Position numbers and translations under genes: made by a program. A stretch of DNA of 64,000 nt from Promethearchaeati archaeon SRVP18_Atabeyarchaeia-1 (lineage in GTDB: Archaea; Asgardarchaeota; Atabeyarchaeia; Atabeyarchaeales; Atabeyarchaeaceae), in the NCBI GenBank assembly GCA_037308085.1, contig CP147779.1, positions 486,184 through 550,183 on the forward strand, written 5' to 3'. Position 1 is the first letter of the stretch, and the number at the start of each line of letters is the position of its first letter. Below, in pieces: positions 8,056-21,621 of the stretch. The notes under the pieces were generated by a model that worked only from the letters and a program-made list of their open reading frames with translations, was not told the DNA's origin and searched no databases.

Positions 8056-8737
8056 AGGCGGAGGAGGAGAAGCTGGGTAAAGAGGCAAGCGATGCGGTGG
8101 ACAGGACAAAAGACAAAGTGCGCAGTGCACAGGGCAAGAGCGCCAAGAAAGTGGACGATAACGGTACGCCTACCGACTGAGCAGAAAACGAGGCAAGCAG
8201 CCGTCTCATTTTTCTGGGTATCCTCGCATCGCTTGATCACGACGTCCGCTGCGAGGAAGCCCACATCCATCTAGGGGTGGGCGGTTCATGGCGCTGGGAG
8301 TCACATATATGTGGCTTGTCCCCTGTTTTGGTAGAAGCGAGTCAGAGGGGGTGATAAGGGAATTTGACGAAGAACCTTGCATCTTATCGTGGAGGGATGA
8401 CGCTGGCAATAGCCGGTTTCATCTTTTCCCTGTTTGGTTTCTTGTCCGTTATGTTCAGCTCTGGATTGTCTTGGCTTCAAGGACTCCCGTTAATGGTTTT
8501 TGGTATTTCACTTGAGTTGCTGGGCATTGCCTATCGTCAATGACACGATGCCTAGCCATCGCCAAACGTATGCTGGATTAACTGGGAAGTCCAACTTTCT
8601 TTTTTTTACGTATTCTTCGGACTCCGTTTCAACTCGGTGTCTCAGTCTTGTGCCAATTCATTCTGCAGGGACGTTAAGACTATAAGCCAAAGAAGGTGTC
8701 ATTATGCTTGTCTAGTAGACGGAGGAGACGATTCGAT

Positions 8738-9214
8738 ATGAATGACAAGTTCCACATGGTTGGCACTAGAATTCCAGAGTTCAGCCTCCCGAATTCCAGA
8801 GGAGAGAACGTCAACATAAGGGATTTTGAAGGCAAGAAGAACGTCGTCATAATCCTGCTAAGGGGCATAAGCTGACCATACTGTAGAGGACACCTTGCCG
8901 GACTTGCAAGTGGCTACGAAGGGTTTGAGCAACTGAACGCAACGCTGTATCCTATTACCGCGGACAAATTAGAGAATGCTGAGAAAATGGAGGAAAAATA
9001 CGCCAAGGGAAGATATCCGGTGTTCTATGATCAGAGTAAGAAGGTTGCAGACATGTTGCACCAAGAGGTCATCATTCACAAGTTCGGGAGGATGCCGGCT
9101 CTACTGGTTGTAGACAAGAAGGGAATGGTTCGATACGCGCATTACGGCGAATCAATGAGGGACATTCCCAAGAACGAGGAGATATTCGGGGTGCTCAAGG
9201 AATTCGTGGATTAG
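8738..9214 (+). CDS. Peroxiredoxin-like (AhpC/TSA-redoxin, thioredoxin-fold) protein with in-frame TGA at 8873..8875; candidate selenoprotein, otherwise a nonsense pseudogene
   Basis: GGAGG SD 12 nt upstream of the ATG. Translation: MNDKFHMVGTRIPEFSLPNSRGENVNIRDFEGKKNVVIILLRGIS-TGA-PYCRGHLAGL...PALLVVDKKGMVRYAHYG... The TGA occupies the first Cys of the family (W)CPxC motif. There are no other stops or frameshifts over 158 codons. Confidence 0.6.
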
Positions 9215-9223
9215 AGATTTGGT

Positions 9224-9260
9224 GGGGTAAGACAGAAAAGACAGATGAAGTCTATACCCT
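9224..9260 (+). promoter_or_regulatory. 3' UTR hairpin; weak SECIS candidate for the TGA-containing redoxin gene
   Basis: Lower stem GGGTA (9225-9229) / TACCC (9255-9259). 5' internal loop AGACAGAAA contains GAA; the 3' side is a single A (9254). Upper stem AGAC (9239-9242) / GTCT (9250-9253). 7-nt apical loop. Confidence 0.2.
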
Positions 9261-9291
9261 TAACTTGGCCAAAGTGACCAGATCTCGACCT

Positions 9292-9807
9292 TCACCTTTT
9301 TTGGGGGCGCACTTCTGCCGCCCACGAGTCCTTCCCGTCTTGCTGTTGTAGTATTCTGTCCACGCATCTCCTCACATATACTTCTATTTCCCTGATGGAA
9401 CGTTCAAAAACCTCTACTGGTTTTTCCCAAAGATCTTCCATATCCCTATCGTCGGAAAAGCCGGCGCAATTCTTGATCGTGAGGATCTTCGCCTTGGTCT
9501 TTGGAAACATGCCCTCTAGTTCTGCCACCTGCTTCTTATCAAAAACCAAGATCAGATCAGCCGCCTCAACCAAGCTAACATTCACCTGTCTGGGCTTGTG
9601 ACGAGATAGATCAACGCCGTACTTTCGGGCCACCTCAACTATTTCCTGCGGTAATGGCTGACCTCTATACTCAAGTATTCCAGCCGATTCCACCTTTATG
9701 CTCGAGTTTCCAAGAAGTTTCTTAGTTATCCGTTCGGCGAACGGGCTTCTGAAGACATTTCCTGTACAAACGTATAGTATGCTCTTGATGGGCATTTGAA
9801 ACACCAT
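9292..9807 (-). CDS. Low-molecular-weight phosphotyrosine phosphatase / ArsC-family protein
   Basis: Active-site loop ILYVCTGNVFRSPFAE (CX5R-S). Start at either MVFQ (9807) or MPIK (9795). Confidence 0.75.
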   Translation of the reverse strand: MVFQMPIKSILYVCTGNVFRSPFAERITKKLLGNSSIKVESAGILEYRGQPLPQEIVEVARKYGVDLSRHKPRQVNVSLVEAADLILVFDKKQVAELEGMFPKTKAKILTIKNCAGFSDDRDMEDLWEKPVEVFERSIREIEVYVRRCVDRILQQQDGKDSWAAEVRPQKR

Positions 9808-9916
9808 CTTGGCGATTCTTACTTGTGGAAGGAACGATATAGCGTTTGATGGGTTGACACAGAGCTTTTTATTTAGTACATTGTATCTGGTTAATATCCA
9901 CTGTGGAGGGCTTTGC

Positions 9917-11362
9917 ATGAGTGCGGTGAAGAATTACGATCTTATTGTCGTCGGAACCGGCTCCGCTATGGCGATAGTGGACGCCATGATCAATGAGAAT
10001 ACTCACCTAAAAGTCGCGGTCATAGACAAGGATGATCCCGGCGGTATCTGCTTGACACGAGGCTGTATCCCATCAAAGCTACTTGTTTACCCCGCAGAGA
10101 TAGTGCGAACAATAGAGAGAGCAAATGAGTTTGGAATCGACGTGAACCTGAGGAAAGTGGATTTCGCCAAGGTTATGGAGAGAATGCGGTCCCACCTAGG
10201 TCCCGAGATTAAGATGATCAGAGAGGGGCTCTCCAGCGCTGCAAACATGGACTACTATCCCATTGCAGCTGAGTTCATCGCCCCGTACAAGTTGAAAGCT
10301 GGAAAAGACGTCATAACCTCGAAGATGATTATTCTCTGCACCGGGTCCAGACCCATGATACCCCCAATCAATGGGCTTGACAAGGTAGGCTATCTCACAA
10401 GCGACACACTGCTCGGAATCACTCGCCTGCCCGATAGCGTGATGATAGTAGGTGGTGGATTCATAGCTGCGGAGTATGGACACTTCTTCTCATCTATGGG
10501 CTCGAAAGTCACAATAATCGGTCGCGCACCACAATTCCTCCCGGAGGAAGAACCAGAGATCGGTGCTCTATCAAAAAGGGAGATGCAGAGACACATGACA
10601 ATCATCACAAACCACGAGGTTGTAGACGCCAACAAGACAGCTTCAGGAAAGAAGAAGCTCATAGTAGTAGATCGCTCGACCAAGAATAGGACCGAAGTTA
10701 TCGGCGACGAGATACTGGTGGCAGCCGGAAGAGCATCAAATTCGGATGTGCTTCATCCAGAGAAGGCTGGAATCGCCACAGATAAGAATGGATGGATCAT
10801 CGTCAACGAGCACCTCGAAACCAACCAGCCAAACATATGGGCTCTGGGTGACGCAGACGGCAAGTATCCCTTCAAACACAAAGCGAACTATGAGTCCCTA
10901 GTCTTATACCACAACGCTGTTTTGAAGGACAACATGAAGGCAGATTACCATGCAATTCCACACGCAATTTTCTCGTTCCCCGAGATTGCGAGTGTGGGGC
11001 TGAAGGAGAGAGAAGCAATAGAGAGACTTGGCGAAGATAAGATCCTCATTGGTATCCAGAGATACGAAGACACTGCAAAAGGAGAAGCCATGGGGGTTAA
11101 GGATTTCTTCGTCAAGGCAATCGTGGAAAAAGAAACCATGAAGATCCTGGGGGCGCACATCATCGGCCCAAGTGCATCCATTCTCATACAGGAGATAATA
11201 GACTTGATGTACACGCCACAGCAAAGCGCACTACCAATAACTCAAGGAATGCATATCCACCCAGCGCTCACCGAAGTGGTAGAAAGAGCCTTCGCAAACC
11301 TCATGTCTCCAGATCAGTATCACCACACTATCGAGGATCATTTCAAGCTGCCAACCCAGTGA
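9917..11362 (+). CDS. Class I pyridine nucleotide-disulfide oxidoreductase (dihydrolipoamide dehydrogenase / glutathione reductase family)
   Basis: N-terminal FAD motif DLIVVGTGSA. Redox disulfide GGICLTRGCIPSK. Second Rossmann fold VMIVGGGFIAAE. C-terminal interface HIHPALTEV. ATG at 9917 after a GGAGGG SD. Confidence 0.8.
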   Translation: MSAVKNYDLIVVGTGSAMAIVDAMINENTHLKVAVIDKDDPGGICLTRGCIPSKLLVYPAEIVRTIERANEFGIDVNLRKVDFAKVMERMRSHLGPEIKMIREGLSSAANMDYYPIAAEFIAPYKLKAGKDVITSKMIILCTGSRPMIPPINGLDKVGYLTSDTLLGITRLPDSVMIVGGGFIAAEYGHFFSSMGSKVTIIGRAPQFLPEEEPEIGALSKREMQRHMTIITNHEVVDANKTASGKKKLIVVDRSTKNRTEVIGDEILVAAGRASNSDVLHPEKAGIATDKNGWIIVNEHLETNQPNIWALGDADGKYPFKHKANYESLVLYHNAVLKDNMKADYHAIPHAIFSFPEIASVGLKEREAIERLGEDKILIGIQRYEDTAKGEAMGVKDFFVKAIVEKETMKILGAHIIGPSASILIQEIIDLMYTPQQSALPITQGMHIHPALTEVVERAFANLMSPDQYHHTIEDHFKLPTQ

Positions 11363-21516: not shown

Positions 21517-21621
21517 GGGCCCGTGGCCTAGTCAGGATAGGGCGCCAGCCTCCTAACTCATTTCTCCCCGCAAACCGGAGAGAGCTGGTGGTCGAGGGTT
21601 CAATTCCCTCCGGGCCCGCCA
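21517..21621 (+). tRNA. tRNA-Arg(CCU) with canonical 37/38 intron (27 nt) and encoded CCA
   Basis: Acceptor GGGCCCG/CGGGCCC. Anticodon arm CCAGC-CTCCTA|intron|A-GCTGG. BHB: central helix CTCC/GGAG with bulges TAA and AGA. T arm GAGGG-TTCAATT-CCCTC. Confidence 0.9.

Follow-up and report, generated by a model that had tools for sequence, protein, structure and literature searches.

Does the in-frame TGA at positions 8873–8875 of this locus end a short peptide, or is it read as selenocysteine (Sec) within a longer redox protein? The locus lies in a stretch of 64,000 nucleotides of Atabeyarchaeia DNA, hereafter the window, which we analyzed together with homologous loci from other genomes. Judged from sequence comparisons, the TGA almost certainly encodes selenocysteine. 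We consider it very probable that the gene, here called prxL, is an Asgard peroxiredoxin-like (PrxL) selenoprotein gene, with a predicted product of 158 residues in the peroxiredoxin (Prx)/BCP fold, whose UGA would be read as Sec under the direction of an element in the 3′ UTR at 9213–9287. In the proposed mechanism, the UGA would be decoded by an archaeal/eukaryote-like system comprising tRNA-Sec and EFsec, and the structured element located right after the stop codon would direct this decoding. Actual insertion of Sec at the UGA is what we infer from the observations described below.

The prxL coding sequence occupies positions 8738–9214 of the plus strand, from an ATG start codon (8738–8740) to a TAG stop codon (9212–9214), and a GGAGG ribosome-binding motif can be read in the sequence at 8721–8725, 12 nt 5′ of the ATG. 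Its 158 sense codons are interrupted by one internal stop, the TGA, in the context ...LLRGIS-TGA-PYCRGH..., just as described in the first-pass annotation, which had been made from the letters of the window alone. Based on the translation, on Pfam and on 85 homologous genes, the predicted product of 158 residues, including Sec46, was assigned to the Prx/redoxin fold; with Cys placed at the TGA, the Pfam matches were AhpC-TSA (4.6e-21) and Redoxin (8.3e-17). The TGA, predicted to encode Sec46, takes the first position of a U-P-Y-C redox box, and the TGT at 8882–8884 encodes Cys49, the sole Cys of the protein, which presumably acts as the resolving partner of Sec46. The earlier placement of the TGA at the first Cys of a CPxC-type motif was borne out by the best PDB sequence match, the thioredoxin-family protein 3hdc (E 1e-7), in which W-C-P-Y-C aligns with S-U-P-Y-C and the second Cys of the CxxC aligns with Cys49. 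Reading the frame also confirmed that no start codon lies between the TGA and 8987, where the first downstream ATG, GTG or TTG of the prxL frame is found. Since TGA ends 15 of the window’s 40 stop-to-stop ORFs with 200 or more codons, this codon is a normal stop and the standard code applies in the window, in agreement with the first reading. The further TGA-interrupted selenoprotein ORFs envisaged in the first-pass annotation did not turn up within the 64-kb window: the TGA at 8873 was the only one in a convincing redox context among the 149 TGA sites flanked on each side by 30 or more open codons.

Two genes adjoin prxL, a convergent LMWPc gene (ArsC-like phosphatase; 9292–9918, minus strand) and a class-I pyridine-nucleotide disulfide oxidoreductase gene (Pyr_redox_2; 9809–11362, plus strand). 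Together they form a possible redox neighborhood. An operon or functional link between prxL and these neighbors was nevertheless rejected, because the arrangement is syntenic in locus L002 only and is missing from the other loci.

Homologs were collected by scanning one genome per GTDB species, which yielded 80 loci; with the addition of tandem copies and of loci found earlier, the set comprised 85 genes. The codon aligned to 8873–8875 was TGA in 83 of these genes and GAT (Asp) in the remaining two, a distribution that puts the prxL TGA far from chance. The Asgard hosts were Atabey-, Freya-, Jord-, Hermod-, Thor-, Hel-, Hod- and Odinarchaeota, Borrarchaeum and many Promethearchaeota, and 11 bacterial hosts belonged to the Anaerolineae/Chloroflexota. 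The homolog of Atabeyarchaeum deiterrae was 84% identical to the window protein, and the Anaerolineae homologs (L072–L082), which were 38–45% identical, kept the TGA at the same column. Codon changes between the window gene and its counterpart in L002 numbered 18 synonymous and 5 non-synonymous before the TGA, and 16 synonymous and 5 non-synonymous in the 37 codons from the TGA to the first downstream ATG. As the changes are predominantly synonymous upstream and downstream of the TGA, both parts are translated in this frame. Both halves of the prxL ORF are under purifying selection.

The 3′ UTR of prxL contains a SECIS-like element (9213–9287, plus strand), a three-way junction whose 5′ end lies within the stop codon and which was delineated both by a covariance model (R1) and by the minimum free energy (MFE) fold. 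The 5′ strand of its outer stem, GAGAUUUGGU (9214–9223), pairs with ACCAGAUCUC at 9277–9286. The main SECIS hairpin (9224–9260) consists of a 10-bp stem, from which one A bulges out, and a 16-nt apical loop, AGAAAAGACAGAUGAA (9234–9249), which is A-rich on its 5′ side and carries AUGA at 9245–9248. It is followed by a small second hairpin, ACUU-GGCCA-AAGU (9263–9275), for which the consensus is AACUU-AGCCA-AAGUU. Shortly after the element, a T6 run at 9297–9302 likely serves as an archaeal oligo-T terminator; among 70 homologous 3′ UTRs, 44 had a run of at least five T within 20 nt past the element.

The R1 model, built from 57 copies of the element, matched 9213–9287 with 45.3 bits (E 9e-7), and this was its single match in 64 kb. 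Over the homologous loci (L001–L069) it identified 72 copies, all directly after TGA-containing genes, and the element, about 75 nt long, was present for every Asgard TGA gene with an available and detected 3′ UTR. R1 found no copy behind the two Asp paralogs (L044 and L021:3643–4119) or behind the bacterial genes. Hence, the covarying RNA element is specific to TGA-containing genes. Its consensus has an outer stem of GAUUUGG/CCAAAUC and a main hairpin of 9–10 bp, the A-rich loop of which carries (A/G)UGA near its 3′ end. In the alignment of the 72 elements, 95.6% of cells were paired and compensatory changes were observed in 17 of 22 pairs; none of 500 shuffles reached the observed covariation and pairing, and slid controls paired at 36–53%. 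Compensatory changes were located in the outer stem (L002, L024, L057 and L058), in nine of the ten stem pairs of the main hairpin across homologs, and in the small second hairpin, where a G-C to C-G swap occurred in 13 sequences. When the window copy was folded alone, the MFE structure was the same three-way junction, at −25.1 kcal/mol (z −4.17), and 0 of 200 shuffles were as stable. An alternative pairing, between the 3′ CCAAAUC and the 3′ strand of the main hairpin, was rejected because the compensatory changes support the outer stem. The covariance search of the prxL 3′ UTR proposed at the outset was thus answered by R1 and by none of the Rfam models: Rfam scans of the whole window at the gathering threshold, and of 8700–9400 with E up to 10, returned no SECIS match. 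With standard tools, an earlier study had the same outcome (Mariotti et al, 2016; PMC4989117).

The only close homologs that do not carry Sec have Asp (GAT) at the Sec position, in the context ..GLMD[PL]FCQ.. (L044 885–1358 and L021:3643–4119; P0004 and P0007), and the gene in L044 is a paralog from Helarchaeota Hel_GB_A. Cys-containing orthologs, which the first-pass annotation had proposed seeking at this position, were encountered only as distant Halobacteria sequences (C-P-K-C and similar) in the family alignment of Huang et al, 2024 (PMC11227280), the nearest non-Sec homologs being those with Asp. A sister group (L051, L054–L068) has U-P-Y-A/S with no resolving Cys, often beside a U-P-F-C copy. 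Tandem copies were present in L030 (1795–2268 and 3001–3477), L018 and L037, with the 3′-UTR element after each copy. In Borrarchaeum weybense, a second copy (L023 2326–2805) carries TGA codons at 2461 and 2470, the two positions of the redox box (U-G-H-U), as well as its own 3′-UTR element, and it matches truncated Sifarchaeia entries of Huang et al, 2024. A 45%-identical homolog with TGA from an uncultured archaeon (L071 2–520; CAZEPC010000389.1) is followed by a different hairpin, with a GAAAA...GAGAG loop, and not by the three-way junction. Asgard-type genes with the Asgard 3′-UTR element were also present in two records labeled as bacterial MAGs, L021 (DATKTP010000126.1, ‘Deferrimicrobium sp.’) and L051 (DATKTW010000112.1, ‘Nanopelagicaceae bacterium’); these contigs are probably mis-binned or mis-labeled.

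The representation of this gene in public databases calls for a warning, as it is carried there either as fragments of 75–106 aa or as a full-length protein with a false Trp. The protein search returned full-length relatives in which W or D aligns with the TGA, plus many C-terminal fragments of 75–106 aa. For the entries with Trp at the Sec position (P0001–P0003, P0005 and P0006), the underlying DNA was TGA (for example L001 306–308), and the deposited W-containing protein disagreed with the table-11 translation. These two observations point to a gene caller that switched to code 4 on short contigs. The ‘peroxiredoxin’ entries of 75–106 aa (P0008–P0022) are calls truncated after the in-frame TGA, and automatic annotation gives the same name to the 75-aa ORF at 8987–9214 of the window.

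Four other readings of the TGA were weighed against these data. A pseudogene or a sequencing error, in which a Cys codon (TGC or TGT) was mutated or misread to TGA and the gene is dead, would fit the lone in-frame stop in an otherwise intact ORF, which resembles a fresh nonsense mutation. The same TGA, however, is shared by 83 of 85 homologous genes in 80 species-level genomes from two domains, the ratio of synonymous to non-synonymous changes is about 3 to 1 on either side, and a dedicated RNA element co-varies with it; we regard this reading as effectively refuted. The annotated 75-aa ‘peroxiredoxin’ could instead be taken at face value, with the locus giving two products, a 45-residue peptide ending at the TGA and a separate C-terminal protein starting at 8987. 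This deserves practically no credence in view of the 37 codons between the TGA and 8987, which are themselves under purifying selection (16 synonymous, 5 non-synonymous) and offer no start codon ahead of 8987, and in view of the 75-aa fragment itself, which would be without the whole N-terminal half of the Prx fold, active site included.

A reassigned code, with TGA read as Trp or Gly throughout the organism, would account for the W at the aligned position of P0001–P0003, P0005 and P0006, but the DNA under each W is TGA, the protein differs from the table-11 translation in the manner of code-4 gene calling on short contigs, and 15 of the 40 long ORFs in the window end in TGA; the chance that this reading holds is negligible. 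Slightly less far-fetched, and still highly improbable, is read-through of the UGA in which a near-cognate tRNA (Cys, Trp or Arg) inserts a standard amino acid, or some other role for the element, such as mRNA stability or regulation. Such a role would sit well with an element that has no canonical AUGA/GA core flanking its stem and that no Rfam SECIS model matches. On the other hand, the element is confined to TGA genes and lost in the Asp paralogs, it has its apical-loop family, and apparently its architecture, in common with the canonical lokiSECIS found in the sister PrxL subfamily, the redox-active CxxC site occupied by the TGA is typical for Sec, the bacterial homologs have a bSECIS-like hairpin, and the full Sec machinery is reported for this genome (PMC11291895). 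The selenoprotein put forward as a candidate in the first-pass annotation is, in turn, backed by the conservation of the TGA, by purifying selection, by the covarying 3′-UTR element and by the bacterial in-CDS hairpin.

The finding had been expected to be notable if the lineage had no described Sec machinery, which is not the case. For complete Atabeyarchaeia and Freyarchaeia genomes, EFsec, tRNA-Sec, PSTK, SecS and SPS have been reported, as have the selenoproteins HdrA, a ‘peroxiredoxin family protein (Prx-like)’ with UXXC, SPS and VhuU (Valentin-Alvarado et al, 2024; PMC11291895). Within the 64-kb window, no Sec machinery genes were found, and neither ARAGORN nor Rfam detected a tRNA-Sec. 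The only tRNA in the window (21517–21618, plus strand), found by Rfam and missed by ARAGORN, has an intron of about 29 nt and the anticodon loop CUCCUAA; it was rejected as a tRNA-Sec on the basis of its anticodon, which identifies it as tRNA-Arg(CCU). A search for a second selenoprotein gene with the published Jordarchaeia VhuD sequence gave no match assignable to the same genome.

PrxL was described as one of five selenoprotein families of Lokiarchaeota, in UxxC and UxxU forms, with no Cys outside the redox box, and the family has never been characterized experimentally (Mariotti et al, 2016; PMC4989117). It is one of five widespread Asgard selenoprotein families (PMC4989117; PMC11227280) and is present in 43% of Sec-using Asgard archaea (Huang et al, 2024; PMC11227280). 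The dataset of Huang et al, 2024, in whose supplement Sec is written as X, holds the subfamily of the window protein (..LLRGITXPYCRGHVA.., ..LFRNINXPYCRWHAA.. and ..LFRSKSXPYAKAHSE..), and the window protein is 68% identical over 154 residues to its entry Jordarchaeia_GCA_019056875_U. The PrxL family is already published as an Asgard archaeal selenoprotein, and the prxL of the window has very probably been published for this genome as well. The present result is a re-detection, from raw sequence, of published PrxL in a lineage, and in all likelihood a genome, for which Sec machinery and selenoproteome were described in 2024, and its weight as a discovery is small.

The protein fold was assessed with an AF2 model of the homolog P0001 (pLDDT 91.4). 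Foldseek placed this model closest to BCP/AhpE proteins, with TM values of 0.84–0.87 to Sulfolobus Bcp1 and Bcp4 and M. tuberculosis AhpE. Residue 46 is located at the N-terminus of helix 47–58 (α1), after the strand formed by residues 35–40. In the alignment with Sulfolobus Bcp1 (3drn), Sec46 falls on the Thr of the Prx TxxC motif and Cys49 on the position of the peroxidatic Cys. Typical peroxiredoxins (BCP/PrxQ, AhpE) have the same overall fold, and the prxL alignment shows no variation at the Arg of the G-R-x-P...D segment, but the Pro and Thr of the PxxxTxxC motif are replaced by Arg42 and Sec46. With regard to TlpA/ResA-type oxidoreductases, the C-P-Y-C box of 3hdc corresponds residue for residue to U-P-Y-C, in what is a weak match, whereas the structural neighbors of the P0001 model are Prx/BCP proteins and not TlpA. 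No signal peptide or membrane anchor was recognized in PrxL by sequence inspection. The U-P-Y-A sister group, which has no Cys, argues that Sec and not Cys49 is the essential residue. Sec46 would likely act as the nucleophile and then form an Se-S (selenenylsulfide) bond with Cys49, which may be reduced by an external thiol system or reductant. PrxL would accordingly act as a thiol-disulfide oxidoreductase or a peroxidase-type redox enzyme.

At the gene level, the window gene is no different from published Asgard PrxL: it has the same fold, a UxxC box with Sec at the first Cys, no Cys outside this box and a 3′-UTR SECIS beside the stop codon. The SECIS of its subfamily, however, departs from the published lokiSECIS (AUGA + 9 bp + 11 nt + GA). 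For comparison, we used 72 metagenome loci (L085–L154) of the sister PrxL subfamily (FFRGNW-U-SHC and U-xx-U), including contigs of the Loki’s Castle LAZR assembly. Their UTRs contain the published lokiSECIS, consisting of AUGA, a 9-bp stem, an 11-nt loop such as AAAAAAAUGAG, and then GA; by eye only, it was judged to be set within an outer stem together with a small hairpin (AACCU-UGCCA-AGGUU). A pattern search for the AUGA/GA core matched 59 of 66 sister-subfamily UTRs versus 1 of 75 UTRs from the subfamily of the window gene, the latter being at shuffle level (about 2 expected).

The lokiSECIS has AUGA 5′ and GA/AA 3′ of the main stem (Mariotti et al, 2016), whereas the corresponding flanks are Watson-Crick paired in the window copy as well as in its subfamily. 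Its 11-nt loop ends in (A)G, whereas the 16-nt loop of the window copy ends in AA and has the AUGA inside the loop. The likenesses to lokiSECIS comprise the place in the 3′ UTR, a main stem of 9–10 bp, the A-rich start of the loop, (A/G)UGA or GAG at the 3′ end of the loop, and the enclosing pair of outer stem and small 3′ hairpin that the canonical PrxL lokiSECIS has as well. Loki-clade members have loops of 11–12 nt (AAAAAAAUGAG), which fit lokiSECIS, and in the window’s subfamily the Atabey/Frey/Jord-type members have a longer loop of the form GAAAA-N(4–8)-AUGA; one apical-loop family is common to this subfamily and the canonical lokiSECIS of the sister subfamily. The element does not conform to the euryarchaeal SECIS of the Methanococcus type, with its GC-rich 10-bp stem, GAA/A asymmetric bulge and 3-bp G-C upper stem: no upper G-C stem or second helix was predicted in the MFE or consensus structure, and the loop has GAAAA and AUGA motifs.

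A speculative reading, which we hold to be unlikely, is that this PrxL subfamily (MKDKF...U-P-[YF]-C/A) may have a SECIS class of its own that has so far been described too little, a three-way junction in which the AUGA/GA kink-turn core at the base of the main stem would be swapped for Watson-Crick pairs and, in Atabey/Frey/Jord-type members, a GA...UGA motif would sit atop the stem in a K-loop-like manner. If the genes are still Sec-decoded, the Asgard Sec-insertion machinery can do without the canonical core at the canonical place. To our knowledge, SBP2 is not found in Asgard archaea, so a distinct class, if real, would bear on the origin of the eukaryotic SECIS/SBP2 system. A non-canonical architecture of this kind could help to define what the Asgard Sec machinery recognizes and may be of specialist interest.

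The bacterial Prx-like thiol:disulfide oxidoreductase selenoproteins (Zhang and Gladyshev, 2008, cited in PMC4989117) belong to the same family and have the same TGA column, but they differ in having a hairpin in the CDS 20 nt after the TGA and no 3′-UTR element. In the Anaerolineae homologs, the CDS contains a conserved 6-bp hairpin with the loop AGUU, which begins 20 nt past the TGA and includes one covarying pair; the example in L078 (3115–3164), CGCGC-AGUU-GCGCG, looks like a bacterial SECIS. No in-CDS hairpin was found 20 nt past the TGA in the archaeal genes. Placement of SECIS elements is known to be domain-specific, in the CDS in bacteria and in the 3′ UTR in archaea (summarized in PMC4989117). 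Based on the bacterial in-CDS hairpin on one side and the Asgard 3′-UTR element on the other, PrxL appears to be a single selenoprotein family with domain-specific recoding signals.
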